This document shows, one piece after another, positions 44,123-62,312 of a DNA stretch of 64,000 bases. Positions within the stretch are counted from its first letter, which is position 1. Each line of letters begins with the position of its first letter. The DNA comes from an uncultured virus (IMG/VR IMGVR_UViG_3300013121_000015). Its lineage: Duplodnaviria; Heunggongvirae; Uroviricota; Caudoviricetes. A program made the translations under genes and the position numbers. A model generated the notes under the pieces. The model did no database searches, was not told where the DNA came from, and saw only the letters and a program-made list of their open reading frames with translations. The stretch lies in IMG/VR virus record IMGVR_UViG_3300013121_000015, positions 62,001-126,000 of that record; one strand, 5' to 3'.

Positions 44123-44443
44123 GTGCCCCTGAACGCCTACTCCGTGACGGTGCTGCCCCGTGGCGCCCACCCTGCGCTGGACGTGGCCGGGTGCTGCGCG
44201 GAGATCGACCGGCTCCTGGCGCCGCCCTGGACGCACGACGAGGCCCACGGCGCCCACCCTGGACGGGGCTACGACGTGACCGCGCTCACGGTCGAGGCGC
44301 GGGGCGAACTCCGCGCGCTGTACGTCGCCGAGCACTGGCGGGTGGTCGCTGAGCCGGGTCCGCCGTCCGTCCCCATGCAGGACCGGGACCGCGTGTACTT
44401 CCGGTTCCGTCTGCCGGTCCGGGGTGACGAGGGCGCGCGCTGA
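44123..44443 (+). CDS. Hypothetical protein
   Basis: Motif plus SD, GTG start. Confidence 0.55.
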   Translation: MPLNAYSVTVLPRGAHPALDVAGCCAEIDRLLAPPWTHDEAHGAHPGRGYDVTALTVEARGELRALYVAEHWRVVAEPGPPSVPMQDRDRVYFRFRLPVRGDEGAR

Positions 44444-44475
44444 GCCGGGGCTACCTCCGGGGCTGGAGGTGTGCA

Positions 44476-45033
44476 TTGACCTGCATCGTCGGGCTGGCAG
44501 ACCGTGGCACCGTCTACTTGGGCGGGGACTCCGCGGCGGTGGGCGGGCTGAGCATCGAGACGCGCGCGGACCCCAAGGTGTTTGTCCGGGACGGCGTGAT
44601 CTTCGGGTTCACCTCGTCCTTCCGAATGGGTCAGCTCCTCCAGTACGCGCTCCAGATCCCGGAACAGAGCGCGCGCCAGACGGACATGGCCTACCTCGTG
44701 ACCACGTTCGCGGACGCCGTGCGGGCGCTCTACCGGGAGCGCGGGTTCATGGGCAAGGTCGGCGAGCGCGAAGACGGCGGGACGTTCCTGCTGGGCTACC
44801 GGGGCCGGCTCTACAAGGTGGCGGACGACTTCCATGTCGCGCAGGTCGCCCACCCCTACGACGCGGTCGGGTGCGGGGGCGAGTTGGCGCTGGGCGCGCT
44901 CTACGCGACGGCGGACTGCGGGTTGGACCCCGAGGCCCGAATCCGGGTGGCGCTCGCCGCTGCGGCCGAGTTCAGCGCCGGGGTGCGCCCGCCGTTCCAC
45001 GTCCTGCGGCTGCCTAGCACGGAGACGTCCTGA
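44476..45033 (+). CDS. Ntn-hydrolase (HslV / proteasome-beta-like) peptidase
   Basis: N-terminal (M)TCIVG..GGDS, PKVF, AVGCGGELALGAL. Confidence 0.8.
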   Translation: MTCIVGLADRGTVYLGGDSAAVGGLSIETRADPKVFVRDGVIFGFTSSFRMGQLLQYALQIPEQSARQTDMAYLVTTFADAVRALYRERGFMGKVGEREDGGTFLLGYRGRLYKVADDFHVAQVAHPYDAVGCGGELALGALYATADCGLDPEARIRVALAAAAEFSAGVRPPFHVLRLPSTETS

Positions 45034-45338
45034 TGGACCCGCTCGTCCTCACCCCGGCTCAGTTCGCATGTCTGCCCGCCCGGACCCGCAGGTCCGCGCC
45101 CCGCGTGGTCGGGTACACCTGGCGCGAGGGCGAGGGCGCGTCAGCGACCGTCCACCGCTGGACGCCCGGCGCGTTCGGGGTGCTGGTCCCGCAGGTCCGG
45201 AGCGTGGCCCTGGTCCCCGCGGGCGCCGTCGTGCGTCGCGTGGACGCCGGCTGGGAAGGGTGGCGGCAGGACGCGCCGCACCGGAAGGTGCTGGGGACGT
45301 GTCCGGGGGACGTGGCGCAGGCGCTCCAGACGGTATGA
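45033..45338 (+). CDS. Hypothetical protein
   Basis: TGATG coupling. Confidence 0.5.
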   Translation: MDPLVLTPAQFACLPARTRRSAPRVVGYTWREGEGASATVHRWTPGAFGVLVPQVRSVALVPAGAVVRRVDAGWEGWRQDAPHRKVLGTCPGDVAQALQTV

Positions 45339-45377
45339 CCCGCGATCCGTGCGGCTACCTCCACGCCGGAGGTGCCC

Positions 45378-45629
45378 ATGTTCGACGCGCTGCACGCGCT
45401 CCCCTTCGTCAACGGTCTCGGTCAGCCCACCGGCAGCTACGTCGTGCTGGCGGTCCTCATCTTCGGGCTGGTCATGCTCGACCAGCTCCGCCTGGACGTG
45501 CCGCGTGGTCGGACGGTCGGCGACGCCTTCCCGGACGCTCCCCACCCGGACCTGACCGACCCCTTCCCCGACGGCGACCTGGACTGCGCGTCCGTCGGGC
45601 GTGGCCCCCGGGTCGGCGCCCGACGCTGA
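45378..45629 (+). CDS. Small membrane protein
   Basis: Motif plus SD; one hydrophobic helix. Confidence 0.55.
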   Translation: MFDALHALPFVNGLGQPTGSYVVLAVLIFGLVMLDQLRLDVPRGRTVGDAFPDAPHPDLTDPFPDGDLDCASVGRGPRVGARR

Positions 45630-45675
45630 CGCCGCTTTTCCAGTCTCTTCCCCGTTCCTCACCAGGAGTCTGCCG

Positions 45676-46797
45676 ATGAACATCACCGTATCCAAGGACG
45701 TGCTCACGAAGGCGCTGGCCCGCGCGCAGGGCATCGTGAAGCACTCGACCACGAACCCCGCGCTGAGCTGCGTCCTGCTCCGCGCGCGCGGCGACAAGCT
45801 CACGGTCTGCGCCACCGACACCATGGTCACGCTCGTCGCGGAGTACCCCGCCAGCGTGTTCCAGGAGGACGAGGTCGCCGTGGACGGGCGCCTGCTGTAC
45901 CAGATCGTGCGCGCGGCCCCCGGTCCCGACCTCGACCTGGAGGTCAAGGGCAAGACGCGGCTGCGCGTCACGAGCGGGACCAGCGCGTCCCACCTCAACC
46001 TGTTCCCCGTGGACGACTACCCGCCGCTGACGAAGCTCGAGGCGGCGAGCCAGTCCCTGACGCTCACCGGGGCCGGATTGGCGCGGCTGATCACCGGCAC
46101 GGGCTACGCCGTGGACGACAACGAGAGCCGCTACGGGCTCAACGGCGCGCACATGGAGTCCGTGCCCGGTCCGGACGGCTCCAGGTTGCTGCGCATGGTG
46201 GCGACCGACGGCAGCCGCATGTCCTGGGCGCAGGTCCCGTTCGAGGGCACCGTCGGGTTGGACCGCCGGTCGCTGCTGGCGCCCAAGGGGCTCACCGAGG
46301 TCCTCAAGCTGATCGAGACGAGCAACCAGCCCTGGACCGTGTCCTTCGCGCCCCGGACGACCGCCTTCGAGGCGCCCGGGGTCCGGCTGCTGTCCAGGAA
46401 CGTGGAGGGCGAGTTCCCGGACTACAAGCAGGTGCTCCCGACCGGGTACCACCGCGAGTGCAAGGTCGAGCGCGGCCCGTTCATCGAGGCGGCCAAGCGG
46501 ATCGGGCTGTTCGCCACGGACCACAACCACTCGGTAGGCTTCCACTTCGAGGAGTCCCGGCTGGTGCTGGTCGCCGAGAACCGGGACTCCGGCGACGGGC
46601 GCGAGGAGGTCCCCGCCGAGCTGTCCGGCGACCCCATGACCACGGGCTTCAACCTCTCCTACGTCCTGGAGGCGCTGTCGGTCACGCGGGGGAAGTCCAT
46701 CACCTTCCGCATGAACGGTCAGTTGGACCCGACCAACCTGCACGTCGAGGGCGAGGACGACGTGTTCACCATCGTCATGCCGATGCGGCTGGACTGA
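45676..46797 (+). CDS. dnaN: DNA polymerase III beta sliding clamp
   Basis: ATD, ESRYGLNG, RMVATDGSRMS, VEGEFPDYKQVLP, GFNLSYVLEAL, C-terminal IVMPMRL. Confidence 0.95.
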   Translation: MNITVSKDVLTKALARAQGIVKHSTTNPALSCVLLRARGDKLTVCATDTMVTLVAEYPASVFQEDEVAVDGRLLYQIVRAAPGPDLDLEVKGKTRLRVTSGTSASHLNLFPVDDYPPLTKLEAASQSLTLTGAGLARLITGTGYAVDDNESRYGLNGAHMESVPGPDGSRLLRMVATDGSRMSWAQVPFEGTVGLDRRSLLAPKGLTEVLKLIETSNQPWTVSFAPRTTAFEAPGVRLLSRNVEGEFPDYKQVLPTGYHRECKVERGPFIEAAKRIGLFATDHNHSVGFHFEESRLVLVAENRDSGDGREEVPAELSGDPMTTGFNLSYVLEALSVTRGKSITFRMNGQLDPTNLHVEGEDDVFTIVMPMRLD

Positions 46798-46799
46798 CC

Positions 46800-47150
46800 A
46801 TGGACCTCGCGGACGTGCTGCGAAGTGAGCTGTCGGGCGTCCGAGTCTCCACCGAATCGGAGATCCAGGCGTGGATCGCGCGGATCCTGACCGCGCACCG
46901 CATCGCGCACGTCCGCGAGGGCACGCTGGGCGACGTCGGCCGACCGGACTTCCTGGTCGGTCGGGTCGCCGTCGAGGTGAAGATCAAGGGGTCGCGCACG
47001 GACCTGATGCGACAGGTCCAGCGGTACGCGAGCCACCCGGACGTGTCCGAGGTGCTGGTCGTCACGACGCGACTGGCCCACCGGCTCCCGGCGACGCTGG
47101 CAGCCAAGCCGGTGACGGTCGTGTGCGTCACGGCGTTCGGGGTGGTCTGA
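46800..47150 (+). CDS. PD-(D/E)XK nuclease-like protein
   Basis: E.EIQ, GRPDFLV..VAVEVK, QVQRY. Confidence 0.75.
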   Translation: MDLADVLRSELSGVRVSTESEIQAWIARILTAHRIAHVREGTLGDVGRPDFLVGRVAVEVKIKGSRTDLMRQVQRYASHPDVSEVLVVTTRLAHRLPATLAAKPVTVVCVTAFGVV

Positions 47151-47410
47151 TGACAGAGGAGGAGCGCGCGCGACGCTTAGCCTACCAGATGGACCGCGTC
47201 CGCCGTGCCAGAACCATCCGCGTTCCGTGCGGTCAATGCGGCGTGTGGACCCGTCTACCGGACCTCTACCGGTGCTACCAGTGCGGCTTCTGGCTCTGCT
47301 TGACGTGCGGAGCCGAGCACTGGCCCGAGGCGGCGACGAAGCGGGACCACGCCTTCATCGCGGTCGCCGAGCAGACCCTGGACATGGAGCGTCCCGAAGA
47401 GACGTCCTGA
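47150..47410 (+). CDS. Small Zn-finger protein
   Basis: CGQC, CYQC, CLTCGAEH. Confidence 0.6.
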   Translation: MTEEERARRLAYQMDRVRRARTIRVPCGQCGVWTRLPDLYRCYQCGFWLCLTCGAEHWPEAATKRDHAFIAVAEQTLDMERPEETS

Positions 47411-47442
47411 CCGCCAGGGCTACCTCTGTCTAGGATCTGCCC

Positions 47443-47865
47443 GTGCCCTACACCGTGTCAGTCCAGATTGTTCCCAACCACTGGCGCGTCGCGCGTGTCT
47501 TCAAGCCAGTCAAGTTCCTGGATCACGCCATCTCGCCAGGAACTCGACTCACCCTGAACGACCTTGCTGTATGGGTGGAAGTCCCCCTGCTGCCCTACGT
47601 CTGCGCGTCCGGGGTCGATGGGTGCGCCGGCTGGGCGCTCGTCGGCGAGCGGCTGGTGGGCTTCGTCCGGGAGGGCGACCTGGCCGAGATGGTCCAGCAC
47701 GACCTCCGGGCGCGCCTGGACCTGTTGCTGGTCGGGTTGGAGCAGCACGGGCAAGCGGGCCTCGACCATGTCCGCGAGGTCGAGCGGAGCGACCGAGAAC
47801 AAGGCCAGCGGCTGCTGGAGCAGATGGGGCTGCGCGCTCTGGCGACCGTGGCGCATCGGGTCTGA
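47443..47865 (+). CDS. Hypothetical protein
   Basis: Follows motif 47418. Confidence 0.55.
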   Translation: MPYTVSVQIVPNHWRVARVFKPVKFLDHAISPGTRLTLNDLAVWVEVPLLPYVCASGVDGCAGWALVGERLVGFVREGDLAEMVQHDLRARLDLLLVGLEQHGQAGLDHVREVERSDREQGQRLLEQMGLRALATVAHRV

Positions 47866-47890
47866 GGGCTACCTCCGTCCAGGAGGGCGT

Positions 47891-49567
47891 ATGGGATCGC
47901 TCAAGCTGGTCGGCAAGGAGTGGGTGGTCGAGGCGGACCCGCACGTCACGATGATGCTGCGGCGGATCTTCCCGCGCGTCCAGAAGGGCCAGCACGGCGC
48001 GATCCGGCTCACGTCCACCGACGAGGTGTGTCGGAACCTCGTCTGGTTCCTGGACCGGTTCGGGCTGGACCTGAGCGAAGAGGACCGGTTCCTGCTGCGC
48101 GCGAAGGCGGACGCTCACCGGTCCAGGGAGCGGCAGGTCGCGGCGCTGCTGACGGGCAAGACCGACCCGCGCGAGATCCCGCTGGCGCTGCCGTTGCGCG
48201 ACTATCAGCGGCTGGCGGTCGAGATGGCCTACCAGCTACGCGGGCTGCTGCTGGGCGATCAGGTGGGTCTCGGAAAGACGGGCGTGTACATCGGACTCGC
48301 CTCCCTCCCCCGGACCCGCCCCGTCGTCTGGGTCACGATGACGCACCTCCAGACCCAGGCCCAGCGCGAGATCCAGCGGTTCGCGCCGGGGCTCCGGTCC
48401 GTGATCGTGCGCCGGGCAAAGGCGTACCCGCTCGGCTTCGAGGCGGGTGGCGACCCGCCGGACGTCGTGATCCTCAACTACGCGAAGCTGGCCGGGTGGG
48501 CGGACTACGTCGCGCAGTTCGTCCGCCTGCTGGTGTTCGACGAGGCCCAGGAGCTCCGACACGACGACTCCGCCCGCTACCGCGCCGCGCTGCACGTCCG
48601 AGAGCGCGCCATGTGGGCGATCCTCGGGACCGGTACCCCCGTCTACAACTACGGGGGCGAAATCTTCAACGTCGTCGAGATCGCGCGGCCGGGTGCGCTG
48701 GGGTCCTGGGACGAGTTCGTGACTGCCTGGGCGCAAGAGCGGGACCAGAAGGGACGCGCCCTGGTCCACGACCCGCGCGCTCTGGGGACGCACCTGCGCG
48801 CCGAGGGGCTGATGCTACGCCGGACCCGGCGGGACGTGGGGCGCGAGCTCCCGGCGCTGTTCCGGACCATCCACGTCGTAGACGCCGACCCGGACGCGCT
48901 GCGCCACGCGACCGGCAACGCGGCGGAGCTCGCGCGAATCCTGCTGGCCGAGTCCGGGACGGGGCTCCAGAAGCTCCAGGCGGCCCAGGACCTCGACCGG
49001 ATCATGCGGCAGGCGACCGGGATCGCCAAGGCCGCCTACGTGGTCGAGTTCGTGCGGCTGCTGCTGGAGTCCGGCGAGGACCGCGTGGTGGTCTTCGCGT
49101 GGCACCACGCCGTCTACGACCTGCTGGAAGACGGGCTCCAGCCCTTCGGCGTCGTGCGGTACACCGGCAAGGAGTCGCCGACCCAGAAGGACATGGCGCT
49201 GCGACGGTTCAAGCTGGACCCGGACCAGCCGTCCGCCGCGCGCGTGTTGCTCCTGTCCCTCCGAGCGGGCGCCGGGATCGACGGGCTCCAGTTCGTGTGC
49301 CAGACCGGGGTGTTCGCGGAGCTCGACTGGTCGCCCAAGGTTCACGAGCAGGATGAAGGACGGATTTGCCGCGACGGACAGGACCAGCCGACGAACTTCT
49401 ACTACCTCGTCGCTGGCACCGGATCGGACCCCGTCGTGATGGACGTGCTCCAGATCAAGACCGGGCAGGCGGACGGGATCGTGGACCCGGACCAGGACGC
49501 GGTCGGCGTCCAGGTGGACCCTGACAAGATCCGCCGGCTGGCCGAGGCGGTGCTGAGCCGGGGGTAG
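47891..49567 (+). CDS. SNF2-family helicase
   Basis: LRDYQ, GDQVGLGKT, VFDEAQEL, TGTPVYN, GAGIDGLQ, ELDWSP..HEQDEGRICRDGQ. Confidence 0.92.
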   Translation: MGSLKLVGKEWVVEADPHVTMMLRRIFPRVQKGQHGAIRLTSTDEVCRNLVWFLDRFGLDLSEEDRFLLRAKADAHRSRERQVAALLTGKTDPREIPLALPLRDYQRLAVEMAYQLRGLLLGDQVGLGKTGVYIGLASLPRTRPVVWVTMTHLQTQAQREIQRFAPGLRSVIVRRAKAYPLGFEAGGDPPDVVILNYAKLAGWADYVAQFVRLLVFDEAQELRHDDSARYRAALHVRERAMWAILGTGTPVYNYGGEIFNVVEIARPGALGSWDEFVTAWAQERDQKGRALVHDPRALGTHLRAEGLMLRRTRRDVGRELPALFRTIHVVDADPDALRHATGNAAELARILLAESGTGLQKLQAAQDLDRIMRQATGIAKAAYVVEFVRLLLESGEDRVVVFAWHHAVYDLLEDGLQPFGVVRYTGKESPTQKDMALRRFKLDPDQPSAARVLLLSLRAGAGIDGLQFVCQTGVFAELDWSPKVHEQDEGRICRDGQDQPTNFYYLVAGTGSDPVVMDVLQIKTGQADGIVDPDQDAVGVQVDPDKIRRLAEAVLSRG

Positions 49568-51852: not shown

Positions 51853-52431
51853 ATGACCATCCGTAAACTGATTGAGTCCGCTCCTGACCCCGTGCGAGCC
51901 GTCGGCGCCCGGCTCTGTTCGCCCACAGACGGTGACGCGCAGCTGTGTTTTCGGCTCTGGTTCGAGGCCGCCTTGGCGGCGAGCGAGGCGGCATATGCCG
52001 CCCATCTTTCGGCGCGCAGGTCCATCGAGACTTTGGCGCGGGAGCTGACCCCGCGTCAGCTTGCCATCGTGACCGCCGACCGGGCGGCCATCGACGAGAA
52101 AACGCCCGCGTTGCTGGCGGCCTTGCGCCGCTTTGGCGATGCGTTGTGGACAGAACGAACCTCCCACCCGATGGTGGTGGAGGCGGCCAAAGAGGTGATG
52201 GACCTGCCGCTGCCGTGGGAGGTCGCCGGTTCGGCGTTCGGCCTGCGCGCCCTCGTGGCACTGATCCACGCCGTCCTATCGCGGCGGGAGCCCCTCCACA
52301 ATCACCAGTGGATGGCACATGACGCCATCCACTACGCCGGACAGCCCGACGCGGCACGGGCGGGGATGTTGGCTGGCCTCGACCGCTTCATGGCGGTCCG
52401 CACGACCCATCCGGCGTGGGCCCACGGCTGA
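51853..52431 (+). CDS. Hypothetical protein
   Basis: ORF in the co-oriented cluster. Confidence 0.6.
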   Translation: MTIRKLIESAPDPVRAVGARLCSPTDGDAQLCFRLWFEAALAASEAAYAAHLSARRSIETLARELTPRQLAIVTADRAAIDEKTPALLAALRRFGDALWTERTSHPMVVEAAKEVMDLPLPWEVAGSAFGLRALVALIHAVLSRREPLHNHQWMAHDAIHYAGQPDAARAGMLAGLDRFMAVRTTHPAWAHG

Positions 52432-52536
52432 CCCCTGCCCCATCTCGGGGCGCCCTGGCCAGGATTGGCCCGAAGACCCACGCCGAAGCCCCAACGGCGC
52501 GGATCACTCTAGGGGCAAGAATCAGGAGCTACTACC

Positions 52537-52911
52537 ATGGAAACTTACGAGTCTTTCGCCATTCGTTGCCTTGACGCCCTGAGCGGCGCCATCTTTCTCC
52601 CTGACACGACCCTGACGGTCGTGGTCGCCTCGATGGTGGAGGGATCGTTCCCTCCACCGGCTGGACAGATCATCTGCTCCGCCCGCAGAGGCAACCTCTT
52701 CTTCTCCTGCTCCGGCTACCCTGCCGAGCGGGCCGAGGACGGCGTTGACCTCGGCTATGCCGAGGCCGAACTCATCGTCTTCGAGGGCGCCCACGAGGCG
52801 CTCGGCTATCTGCTGGAGACCATCGGCGCGGGCCGGGTCTCCACCGTCCTCGGGTCGGTCGAGGATCCCCTGACCGGCTCGGGCTTTCGGGCGCTGTGGG
52901 GGGCGTCATGA
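52537..52911 (+). CDS. Hypothetical protein
   Basis: AGGAG SD. Confidence 0.65.
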   Translation: METYESFAIRCLDALSGAIFLPDTTLTVVVASMVEGSFPPPAGQIICSARRGNLFFSCSGYPAERAEDGVDLGYAEAELIVFEGAHEALGYLLETIGAGRVSTVLGSVEDPLTGSGFRALWGAS

Positions 52912-53153
52912 GGCCCCGTCGGTCGGTTTCTTTGATCGTGTTCGTTGAGGGGCCGCGCCCCGACGGACGGGGTTGGCTGGAGTGTCTTGACGAGCGGTGG
53001 TGGTATCGCCGCTTCCGCACGATGATGCGCGCCGAGGGCGTTATGGCGCATCTTCGCCGTGCTGGCCACCAGGGTGACCTGTGGCGGAAGGTTGAGCAAT
53101 CCACATCGACGGGCGGGATCAGCCGCGTCGAGAAGACGTGGACATGGGGTTGA
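52908..53153 (+). CDS. Hypothetical protein
   Basis: ATGA overlap. Confidence 0.5.
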   Translation: MRPRRSVSLIVFVEGPRPDGRGWLECLDERWWYRRFRTMMRAEGVMAHLRRAGHQGDLWRKVEQSTSTGGISRVEKTWTWG

Positions 53154-53173
53154 CCCTCCGCGCCCTCCGGGGC

Positions 53174-53251
53174 GCCCCGTCGCGGGCTGCTGCTGCCCGC
53201 CTGACGAGCCCTCCAGTCGAGGGCCAGCCCCAGCAGGGGCGAAACGGGAGC
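53174..53251 (+). ncRNA. Type III hammerhead ribozyme
   Basis: CCCGUC^ / stem I GCGGGC-7nt-GCCCGC / CUGACGA / stem II GCCC..GGGC / GAAAC-GGG closing stem III; intergenic. Confidence 0.8.
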
Positions 53252-53255
53252 AAGT

Positions 53256-53516
53256 ATGGACGAACAGACCCTCAGCGCTGTGTACCCGCTCGTGACGTTG
53301 GGGGCGACGCGCACCCCGGATACGCGCAGCCAGTTTGTGATCCACCTCCTGCGCGATCAGGAGTTGATCGCGCAGCGGCTCCAGGACATGCGCCAGCGGG
53401 CGCGAGCGGGGAGAGGCTACCCGAAGGGGTGGCTGGACGATCTACGGGCGGTGCGGGAGCGCCTCGCTGCGGTGGGCTGCCCGGAGGCAGGCCCCCTGCC
53501 GCCCATTGAGGACTGA
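53256..53516 (+). CDS. Hypothetical protein; RBS lies in hammerhead stem III
   Basis: GGGAG SD at 53246-53250. Confidence 0.65.
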   Translation: MDEQTLSAVYPLVTLGATRTPDTRSQFVIHLLRDQELIAQRLQDMRQRARAGRGYPKGWLDDLRAVRERLAAVGCPEAGPLPPIED

Positions 53517-53563
53517 CCCTCATCCCTCGCCCCTGGTGCGCCGGGGGCCTGAGCAGAGGATCA
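53514..53563 (+). repeat. ~50-bp intergenic repeat, copy 1
   Basis: TGACCCTC.....CTCGCCCCTGGTGCGCCGGGGGCCTGAGCAGAGGATCA; copy 2 at 54126. Confidence 0.85.
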
Positions 53564-53630
53564 CACCTCGCCCGTTCGGGCCATGTCCTGATGCGGCCGG
53601 CGATCCGCTTTCCATCGCCAAGGAGATACC

Positions 53631-54128
53631 ATGTCCACACGCCCCGATCCCCAGGCCGCCGGCCTCGCGGCCGTCACCGTCGCGGGCCTCACACCCGCCG
53701 ATCTTGTTCTGCCGTGGGGCGCCACGGCAGAACAGACCCACCGCTGGAAGGCGGCCACAGCCACTTTTTGGGCCGCCTACGACGCGGCCGTCGAAGGCAA
53801 CATCTTCGCCCGGGACACGGACGGGGAGGTGCGCTGGATCCCGGCGGTCTACGTCGGGCAGTCCAGCAAAGGCGCCTGCTACGGTGCCGCCGACTGTTCA
53901 TTCTCTCGTCGGGGCGTGTACCGCCTCGACACCGGGCGGCCCGTGTGGGCCGACGTGGACGCGAACGGGCACATGCTGGAGTACCTGCATGTGCGGATCT
54001 CCGAGGAGGAGATCGTGCCCGAGCCTCTTCCCTCACCGGAGGAGATGGCGGTGGCCTATGCCGCCACCATGCGCGACCGCATGTGGAACACGGCGCAGGC
54101 GCTCGGCGCTGGTGTTGTCATCGCCTGA
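53631..54128 (+). CDS. Hypothetical protein
   Basis: AAGGAG SD. Confidence 0.65.
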   Translation: MSTRPDPQAAGLAAVTVAGLTPADLVLPWGATAEQTHRWKAATATFWAAYDAAVEGNIFARDTDGEVRWIPAVYVGQSSKGACYGAADCSFSRRGVYRLDTGRPVWADVDANGHMLEYLHVRISEEEIVPEPLPSPEEMAVAYAATMRDRMWNTAQALGAGVVIA

Positions 54129-54175
54129 CCCTCGCCTCTCGCCCCTGGTGCGCCGGGGGCCTGAGCAGAGGATCA
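54126..54175 (+). repeat. ~50-bp intergenic repeat, copy 2
   Basis: Near-identical to the 53514 copy. Confidence 0.85.
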
Positions 54176-54239
54176 ACCCGTGCTCGCCGGTCCGCGAGAC
54201 GTGCTGTTCGGCCATGTGAGAGCCGATAGAGGAGCTACG

Positions 54240-54650
54240 ATGTACCCACTCGCAATCCACCCTCTCCTGGTACCAGTCGCCCGTGCCCTGGAGAGCGCCC
54301 ACGGCGTATCGGGCCTCACCGTGGAGCCGATTCGTGAGGTTCGCACGGTCTGGGGCTCGTCGCCCCGGGGCACGCTCAGTGCGGCGAATCTCGTGGGCCC
54401 AGGCGCCCACTACACGGACGGTACGACAGAGAGGGGGTTCGCATCCTTAGTATGCGTCTCCCTCGGCAACGATGCCGAGCCCCGTAGGACGGGGCTGAGC
54501 GGCACGAACAGCGATGGCTCCCTGTGGTGGCAGACGGAGACCACCCACCGGGAGATGGTGGTCGTCGTCCGTGCCCCCGCCGAGGGGTGGACGATGGAGC
54601 AGTTCCAGTCCGCCATTCGGGAGGCCGGCGGGGCGGTCGGCTCGGGCTGA
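54240..54650 (+). CDS. Hypothetical protein
   Basis: GAGGAG SD. Confidence 0.65.
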   Translation: MYPLAIHPLLVPVARALESAHGVSGLTVEPIREVRTVWGSSPRGTLSAANLVGPGAHYTDGTTERGFASLVCVSLGNDAEPRRTGLSGTNSDGSLWWQTETTHREMVVVVRAPAEGWTMEQFQSAIREAGGAVGSG

Positions 54651-54708
54651 ATCTTCATCGTTCCCCGCCCATTTCGGGCTCGCTGGCCGAGAACGGCCTG
54701 GATTTCCG

Positions 54709-55059
54709 ATGTCTCAGCCCGCCGTCCTCCGTCCGCTCTACCTACACAGCCCGGTGCTGTGGCAGGGGCGCCCCTGCACGGTCGTCGCCCTGGAGGGCCC
54801 TGACGCGATGGTTGCTGGCCCCCGCACGGGCCAGGGCTGGGTCAAGCTTGACGAACTGACCCTGGACTACTCCCAGCCCGTCGCGCGCTGGCAGGCGGCG
54901 TTGTGGGTAGTTGCGGAGAGCGCCCGGCTCGCCACCCACCTCGCGCTGAGCGAGGAGGAACTGGCGCTGATCCAGCAGGTCCAGTGGGGAGAGGACTGCT
55001 CCGGTGAGGACGTGGAGGAACTGCGCGCGATGGTCGCCCGGCTCCAGCCTACGACCTGA
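54709..55059 (+). CDS. Hypothetical protein
   Basis: Last gene of the plus-strand cluster. Confidence 0.55.
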   Translation: MSQPAVLRPLYLHSPVLWQGRPCTVVALEGPDAMVAGPRTGQGWVKLDELTLDYSQPVARWQAALWVVAESARLATHLALSEEELALIQQVQWGEDCSGEDVEELRAMVARLQPTT

Positions 55060-61328: not shown

Positions 61329-62312
61329 ATGTCCAAGGTGCATGTATTTGGGGTGCGCGTTGAAGAGAATGAAGAATACCCCTTTGATACGTTCCTCTTG
61401 GACAAGATCGGGTTGAAGAAGAGCACGCCGATCCAGGACTTCGGCTCCACCGTCGGACCTGCACATCAGCGCCTCATGTGGCTCGGCTGGCTGGACCAGG
61501 AGCGTGGTCTGCTGGCTGGGATGATCTGCACCCCGAAGCGGGAGAGCAGCTATTCAGTGCTCACCGAGGGCCACGACGGGGAGCAGACCATCAAGTTGCT
61601 TGATCTGAACTCGGATGCGCGCGAGTTGAACTTCTTCCTCTACTCCTCCAAGCTCCGCGCCCTGGTCTACCAGCACAAGCACGGGACGCTCGGACCCCAC
61701 GGGTTCATGGACCTGCTCAGGGTCCATTACAACCAGGGGAAGAAGGACCTCAAGAAAGAGGAATTGGAGCAGTACACTGGCAAGAAGAAGGGGGAGCAGG
61801 CCATCCGAAGCCGCTACAAGCACCCCCTGCGTCACTCCGTGCTGGCCCGGGAGGGAGCCCTTGCCGAGTTCGTCGGCAACCTGGAGCGTGGCAAGATCAT
61901 CATCGACATCGAGTGCAACTACCAGGACGATGATCGTGACGGGCTGGGCGCCTTCATCGCGAAGCGCAGGGAGGTCATCACGCTCAAGACCATCGATCCG
62001 ACCCTCCGGGAACGGTTCGCCCAGGCGCTCAGTCGGTTCACGAAAACGGCGGGCCCCAAGGCGCGGATCAAGGGACGCACCGAGGAGGGCGAGGAGGAGT
62101 CGCTGTACCTGGATGACGCGCTCAACAAGCTCGCCCTGCACACCTTCGAGCACGACGCATGGATGGAGCATCTGTCAGGGGAAGCGTCTTTCAAGTTCGA
62201 CACTTTCCCGATGGATTCCAGGACGCTGGACGTGCTTGCACCCATCCAGGCCCTGCACGATATTCTGATCGAGCGCGATGCCGAACTGGCCTTGCCGACC
62301 GGCGAGCACTAA
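61329..62312 (+). CDS. Hypothetical soluble protein (lower-GC cassette)
   Basis: GGAG SD; Lys/Glu-rich. Confidence 0.7.
   Translation: MSKVHVFGVRVEENEEYPFDTFLLDKIGLKKSTPIQDFGSTVGPAHQRLMWLGWLDQERGLLAGMICTPKRESSYSVLTEGHDGEQTIKLLDLNSDARELNFFLYSSKLRALVYQHKHGTLGPHGFMDLLRVHYNQGKKDLKKEELEQYTGKKKGEQAIRSRYKHPLRHSVLAREGALAEFVGNLERGKIIIDIECNYQDDDRDGLGAFIAKRREVITLKTIDPTLRERFAQALSRFTKTAGPKARIKGRTEEGEEESLYLDDALNKLALHTFEHDAWMEHLSGEASFKFDTFPMDSRTLDVLAPIQALHDILIERDAELALPTGEH

Follow-up and report, generated by a model that had tools for sequence, protein, structure and literature searches.

Does the short gap between two small genes of an uncultured Caudoviricetes phage encode a self-cleaving RNA, and how would such an RNA fold and serve the gene behind it? 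The question is raised by one locus in the 64,000-nt stretch of DNA that we analysed (the window; positions 62,001 to 126,000 of IMG/VR record IMGVR_UViG_3300013121_000015). The record that hosts it is 133,178 bp long with 70% G+C, carries direct terminal repeats and has almost all of its genes on the + strand. An HslV-like peptidase, a DNA polymerase III beta-clamp homologue with all three Pfam clamp domains and an SNF2-type helicase are encoded consecutively at 44428-49567 of the window, and the approximately 6 kb 3′ of the helicase gene hold exclusively small ORFs without a family match. The site itself occupies a 102-nt gap between ORFs of 85 and 86 aa, both on the + strand. Its parts and the two flanking ORFs are as follows.

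52896..53153, + strand: upstream ORF of 85 aa, GTG start, TGA stop at 53151-53153, GC3 0.76, no family match
53160..53175, + strand: upstream GC hairpin GCGCCC-UCCG-GGGCGC, found by folding, which abuts the 5′ side of stem III directly
53176-53180, + strand: 5′ strand of stem III, pairing with 53244-53248 (5 bp)
53179-53181, + strand: cleavage triplet GUC, predicted cut between 53181 and 53182
53182..53200, + strand: stem-loop I, 53182-53187 paired with 53195-53200 (6 bp), loop UGCUGCU at 53188-53194
53201-53207, + strand: core strand CUGACGA (C3 to A9)
53208..53226, + strand: 19-nt insertion between A9 and G10.1, consisting of the hairpin GCCCUC-CAGUC-GAGGGC (53208-53224) plus CA
53208-53213 with 53219-53224, + strand: strands GCCCUC and GAGGGC of this first hairpin
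53227..53240, + strand: stem-loop II, GCCCC-AGCA-GGGGC, 53227-53231 paired with 53236-53240; G53227-C53240 is G10.1-C11.1
53241-53244 and 53244-53248, + strand: GAAA and the 3′ strand of stem III; GAAAC is 53241-53245
53246-53250, + strand: Shine-Dalgarno-like site GGGAG, 5 nt 5′ of the ATG, its first three bases within stem III
53256..53516, + strand: downstream ORF of 86 aa, ATG at 53256, no family match

Everything that a type III hammerhead core requires is present, namely C3-U4-G5-A6-N7-G8-A9, GAAA, an A15.1-U16.1 pair (A53244-U53180) and an NUH triplet (GUC). Stems I and II end in loops, stem III is open, and stem II has G10.1-C11.1 as its closing pair, which is the type III topology. 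The preliminary description of this DNA had claimed a complete hammerhead core of type III in a phage intergenic region. Both claims were confirmed: each of the listed elements was found where it had been placed, on the coding strand and within the 102-nt gap. The AGCA of loop II (53232-53235) is complementary to the UGCU of loop I (53191-53194), and this complementarity suggests that the two loops may form a tertiary contact in the window.

No sigma-70-like promoter or terminator was found beside the hammerhead, which fits read-through transcription. The 86-aa protein has two homologues of equal length, with 87% and 83% identity. Protein probes for the two flanking small ORFs found no matching viral loci, and no DNA similar to the locus was found in the phage collection. 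Two distant phage relatives, whose helicases are 44-47% identical, carry neither the hammerhead nor the neighbouring small genes.

The Rfam Hammerhead_3 model (RF00008) aligned to 53174-53250 from its first to its last position with 33.4 bits (E 9e-6 in a search of 231 nt and 1.2e-6 in one of the 133-kb genome). The gathering score of this model is 48.5 bits, and a scan of the window at the gathering threshold listed nothing because the site scores below it. In this check, which had been proposed for the locus, the alignment runs end to end and the score falls short of the threshold. Our own descriptor (core, stem I of at least 4 bp, stem II of at least 3 bp and stem III of at least 4 bp) found a single site on both strands of the 133-kb genome, which was this hammerhead. 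On 40 Mb of composition-matched first-order Markov sequence the descriptor returned two sites, of which one equals the real site in quality, and the chance expectation is therefore approximately 0.003-0.007 sites per genome. This control is adequate for one genome but not for a scan of many genomes, and we therefore sought relatives.

Viral contigs were searched with a probe for the 3′ half of the element, consisting of the core strand, any 10-30 nt and GCCC-loop-GGGC-GAAAC. At least 66 viral loci were matched, 18 of which were complete type III hammerheads in two homologous groups. The 5′ halves of these 18 loci, which the probe did not cover, resemble that of the window in having GUC, a 6-bp stem I and a 7-nt loop with the family motif UGNNGCY. 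A covariance model (R1) was built from 10 of the 18 loci with the window left out. R1 aligned to the window over positions 1-83 of 83 and free of gaps, with 59.1 bits (E 8.6e-14), and the window site was its only match in the whole 133-kb genome. By R1 score the window ranks 16th of 48 members.

A second probe, for the 5′ half only, matched at least 119 viral loci, and 74 of the matches listed had a paired stem I. GAAA and a stem III complementary to the cleavage-site strand were present in 63 of these 74, and 47 were distinct. When bacterial genomes were searched with the same probe as a control, 122 loci were matched, of which 7 had stem I paired and 2 were complete. The 47 distinct viral loci and the window were combined in an alignment of 48 sequences (A4). 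Paired cells made up 96.5% in A4 compared with 68.4% in shuffles (stem I, 100%; stem II, 100%; stem III, 90.4%), and compensatory change on both sides was observed at 11 of 15 pairs, including 5 of 6 in stem I; since A4 was fitted to the structure of R1, these pair counts lean towards the model structure. The probes were designed from window or family sequences with the core, GCCC/GGGC and the loop I letters fixed, so these positions carry no independent weight, and the family proportions given throughout describe a sample, the matches listed from the viral scans. A hairpin comparable to that at 53160..53175 lies within 4 nt of stem III in 22 of the 48 family members (among the matches listed).

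Two further probes gave less. The first probe, in which GCCC/GGGC was fixed directly after the core, matched at least 8 viral and at least 122 metagenome loci. The numbers of tandem hairpins among them, 2 of 30 complete hammerheads and 1 of 85 other matches, were too small for inference. A probe for the linker form GGC-NA-GCC matched only the viral contig L005, plus one chance match inside a coding region.

Taken together, we consider it likely that the site is a real type III hammerhead that belongs to a phage family and has a four-helix native fold, with a transcript that would be cut after C53181. Hammerheads as such, and their occurrence at sites like this one, are already known. What makes the locus interesting is the conserved hairpin insertion in the catalytic core.

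The relatives identify the hairpin adjacent to GAAA as stem II, because its closure is constant, its second pair covaries and its loop matches loop I. All 46 parsed members (among the matches listed) close this hairpin with G-C, and its second pair is CG in 18, GC in 16, AU in 11 and UA in 1 of them. A final U in loop I accompanies AGC in loop II in 33 members and a final C accompanies GGC in 10; among the 48 sequences from the matches listed there were no crossed cases, and 5 members had neither combination. A short stem II with the loop motif RGCA characterises the family. The spacing between A9 and stem II in the 46 parsed members is 0 nt (13 members), 1 nt (11 members) or 14-37 nt (22 members), and the 1-nt insertion is U or G at the same place. 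Fourteen of the 18 distinct long insertions folded better than 95% of their shuffles, and the insertion of the window, at -10.7 kcal/mol, folded better than 300 of 300. According to Eckert et al. (2023, PMC10085705), stem II follows A9 directly, with at most 1-2 nt between them. The site in the window breaks this type III rule: in the fold supported by its relatives, 19 nt are inserted between the two. Most likely, the tandem hairpins are the native fold, the second being stem II and the first an insertion.

Longer versions of the insertion were also observed. In L276, L291, L310, L290, L235, L252 and L219, insertions of 26-37 nt fold as two hairpins, and with these modelled folds five helices would meet at the core. 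Further hammerhead-like sites, in L005 and in the metagenome contigs L086 and L048, have tandem hairpins where stem II is expected. The L005 site (about 126-193) is of type III with a GUU site and reaches only 14.9 bits with RF00008, L086 is of type I, and L048 is truncated by the contig end. The insertion may extend beyond one family or topology, as L005, L086 and L048 suggest.

Contigs from four metagenome runs (four studies) were mapped on window positions 52000-55000. The block 53147/53170-53250 reached a depth of 640 (X1) compared with approximately 82 for the next gene. The contigs with this block are short and their upstream parts are mutually unrelated, and position 53250 is joined to different downstream genes, again with 5 nt and then an ATG. 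In one 926-nt contig, 53170-53250 occurs with 2 differences, followed by ATACC-ATG and a homologue of the gene at 53631. A deep block with varied flanks indicates that the conserved unit has the ribozyme's own borders, with GGGAG included. The ribozyme, the upstream hairpin and the ribosome site are one travelling module that stands before different genes in related phages.

Other intergenic stretches nearby are repeated or deeply covered as well. A 62-nt direct repeat occurs at 53513-53574 and 54125-54186 (87% identical, with an identical 32-nt core), and each copy starts at one of the two stop codons that flank the gene 53631-54128. Each contains a 7-bp hairpin, CCCCUGG-UGCG-CCGGGGG, followed by CCUGAGCAGAGGAUCA. 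The genome has only these two copies, and their metagenome depth is raised. A probe for this repeat had no match in viral contigs, and even with a permissive threshold Rfam assigned the neighbouring intergenic repeats to none of its families. A junction of 53534 with 54155 in one contig is what loss of the gene by recombination between the two copies would leave behind. A third intergenic stretch, 54622-54704 of the window, is also deeply covered in these runs (340 in X1), and several contigs join the 62-nt repeat to it (54175 to 54664). The small genes in this region look like cassettes that are shuffled at conserved intergenic modules.

Established hammerhead and bacterial RNA decay behaviour allows a course of events to be proposed for the module. 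In the native fold four helices would meet at the junction, namely stems I and III, stem II (53227-53240) and the inserted hairpin (53208-53224). A polycistronic + strand transcript would cut itself co-transcriptionally after C53181. The upstream RNA would then end in the GC hairpin 53160-53175 plus six bases with a 2′,3′-cyclic phosphate, and the downstream RNA would start with a 5′-OH on base-paired stem I. The ribozyme body would stay as a structured leader 11 nt ahead of the start codon of the 86-aa gene, with GGGAG at the 3′ edge of the module as the putative ribosome site of that gene. The paired 5′-OH end and the compact leader should slow 5′-end-dependent decay. A module of ribozyme, hairpin and ribosome site would fit a role in which long messages are cut into units with protected ends.

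Alternatively, the main purpose of the element might be translational control, with stem III masking the ribosome site and cleavage turning on the 86-aa gene. It had been proposed that stem III holds the Shine-Dalgarno sequence and that cleavage could free it, and the first half of this proposal stands in part. Three of the five Shine-Dalgarno bases (G53246-G53248) are paired in stem III, where they form outer pairs, and the rest of GGGAG is unpaired there. The start codon at 53256 lies 11 nt after GAAA, the nearest among the 39 members with a call (at least 17 nt in the other 38), and relatives in other gene contexts keep the 5-nt spacing between GGGAG and ATG. Against such a role, stem III has just 5 bp. 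Moreover, a crude motif rule applied to the matches listed recognised a Shine-Dalgarno sequence and start within 60 nt in 39 of 48 members (38 of them within 30 nt), and by this same crude rule the sequence overlaps stem III in only 2 of the 39, the window and L275. The freeing of the ribosome site was not consistently seen in partition-function folding: on cleavage, the mean unpaired probability of the Shine-Dalgarno bases went from 0.32 to 0.20 in one context and from 0.01 to 0.21 in another. The modelled accessibility does not rise consistently because the GC-rich coding sequence offers other partners. The partial pairing looks like a side effect of compaction and not a conserved control device, and we regard translational control as an unlikely main purpose. 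Layouts with the ribosome site in stem III do exist in other lineages: the unrelated type III hammerheads of L072 and L008/L046 (metagenome and viral contigs) carry AGGAG or GAGGG inside the 3′ strand of stem III, and an ATG follows 6-8 nt later.

Processing of the transcript by a cleaving ribozyme is the reading that we prefer, and a further alternative concerns the cleavage itself. The insertion between A9 and G10.1 adjoins a metal-binding site of the hammerhead, and activity could therefore be reduced or lost. If the insertion inactivated the core, the hammerhead-like element would no longer cleave and would survive as a structured leader, a protein-binding site or an RNase target. Self-cleavage of this RNA is predicted from the sequence, and none of the listed sequencing runs in which the stretch occurs is registered as RNA. 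Small core insertions (A6a, U13a and two bases near C3) are described by Perreault et al. (2011, PMC3088659), and some of them lower activity. This alternative is opposed by what the 22 insertion forms keep, namely GAAA, a stem III complementary to the cleavage-site strand, the G-C closure and the loop-loop complementarity, all of them features that the 5′-half probe did not require. Short and long forms, furthermore, occur within one family and have the same flanking layout. We consider an element that has lost cleavage to be improbable.

The preliminary description had also presented the tandem hairpins as rivals of stem II. In that scheme the active ribozyme uses GCCC (53208-11) paired with GGGC (53237-40), and cleavage is switchable through an OFF state formed by the tandem hairpins. 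The site can form the canonical pairing (4-5 bp), RF00008 aligns it by way of this pairing, and there are four GC-rich segments able to pair in two ways. The energies, however, favour the tandem hairpins. When stems I and III and both hairpins are formed and the core is left open, the structure has -41.7 kcal/mol compared with -42.4 for the minimum free energy fold, and forcing the G53208-C53240 pairing with the same stems I and III gives -32.6 kcal/mol, which is 9.1 less stable than the two-hairpin fold. The first hairpin would also be transcribed earlier than its competitor. Across 21 long forms, canonical pairing (counted from the pair between the base that follows A9 and the base that precedes G12) extends to at least 3 bp in 6 and to at most 2 bp in 15, 8 of which have 0 bp, whereas the hairpin adjacent to GAAA is always present and covaries. 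The complementarity of GCCC and GGGC appears to be accidental, a product of two GC-rich hairpins, and this removes the basis of the proposed switch, which we judge very improbable.

That GC-rich DNA resembles the hammerhead consensus here by chance alone, as the RF00008 score under the threshold and the roughly one equally good site per 40 Mb of simulated sequence might suggest, is hardly credible given the 59.1 bits that the family model R1 assigns to the window, the exact fit of the element to the intergenic gap, a metagenome-conserved block with the ribozyme's own borders, and loop motifs that are common to the relatives though absent from the probe.

The self-cleaving type III hammerhead with a hairpin in its core thus remains our preferred reading, and the insertion bears on how such RNAs are found. 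We applied RF00008 with a cut-off of E <= 1 to 20 family loci. It matched 2 of the 11 long forms, both below the gathering threshold, and 5 of the 9 short forms, one of them above it. That 9 of 11 long forms escape RF00008 would account for their being overlooked, and since curated models miss most insertion forms, phage ribozymes are probably undercounted. In open-access full texts we found no description of a hairpin inserted in the hammerhead core at A9/G10.1. It is quite possible, although we hold this tentatively, that these RNAs represent an undescribed class of natural hammerheads, in which one or two hairpins, together a folded domain of 14-37 nt, lie between A9 and G10.1 and turn the three-way junction into a four-way or five-way one. 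If this is true, the inserted hairpin would be a natural handle by which a phage or host factor could gate cleavage, and standard models would miss a sizeable share of phage hammerheads. A well-sampled family that has the same ribozyme with and without the core hairpin makes these ideas directly testable. The practical value would lie in a natural insertion site for engineering controllable ribozymes.

Intergenic type III hammerheads of phages and prophages are known (RF00008; Perreault et al., 2011, PMC3088659), and loop-loop pairing has been shown to stabilise active hammerheads in the same paper. The site in the window shares with these hammerheads the catalytic core, the open stem III and the loop I-loop II pairing, and also the small-gene neighbours and the proposed processing of long transcripts into gene-sized RNAs. 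Unlike the hammerheads represented by RF00008, it has a 19-nt hairpin insertion between A9 and stem II, and it scores 33.4 bits with that model.

De la Pena and Flores reportedly described, in 2001, a viroid hammerhead with one extra core nucleotide, placed between A9 and G10.1. That case has its like in the 1-nt insertion at the same place in 11 of 46 parsed family members. The long insertion of the family differs from it: it is an entire hairpin of 14-37 nt and gives the junction one more helix. Synthetic hammerheads that mask a ribosome site and insulators of the RiboJ type have a ribosome site in a ribozyme helix, and their cleavage leaves a defined, structured 5′ leader. The site in the window has in common with these devices a ribosome site within a ribozyme helix and a structured 5′ leader upon predicted cleavage. 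Unlike the synthetic masking devices, its masking is partial (3 of 5 bases) and not conserved in the family, and it has no visible ligand-sensing part.

A further parallel is with the non-circularly permuted hammerheads of Eckert et al. (2023, PMC10085705), where the CUGAnGA block and the adjacent paired nucleotides are assumed never to be interrupted. Both are natural departures from the three classic topologies and were found beyond the standard models. Unlike the hammerheads described there, the window family keeps the type III order and interrupts the block formed by CUGAnGA and stem II. If such RNAs cleave, the hammerhead core tolerates a helix at a place where interruption was assumed to be impossible.
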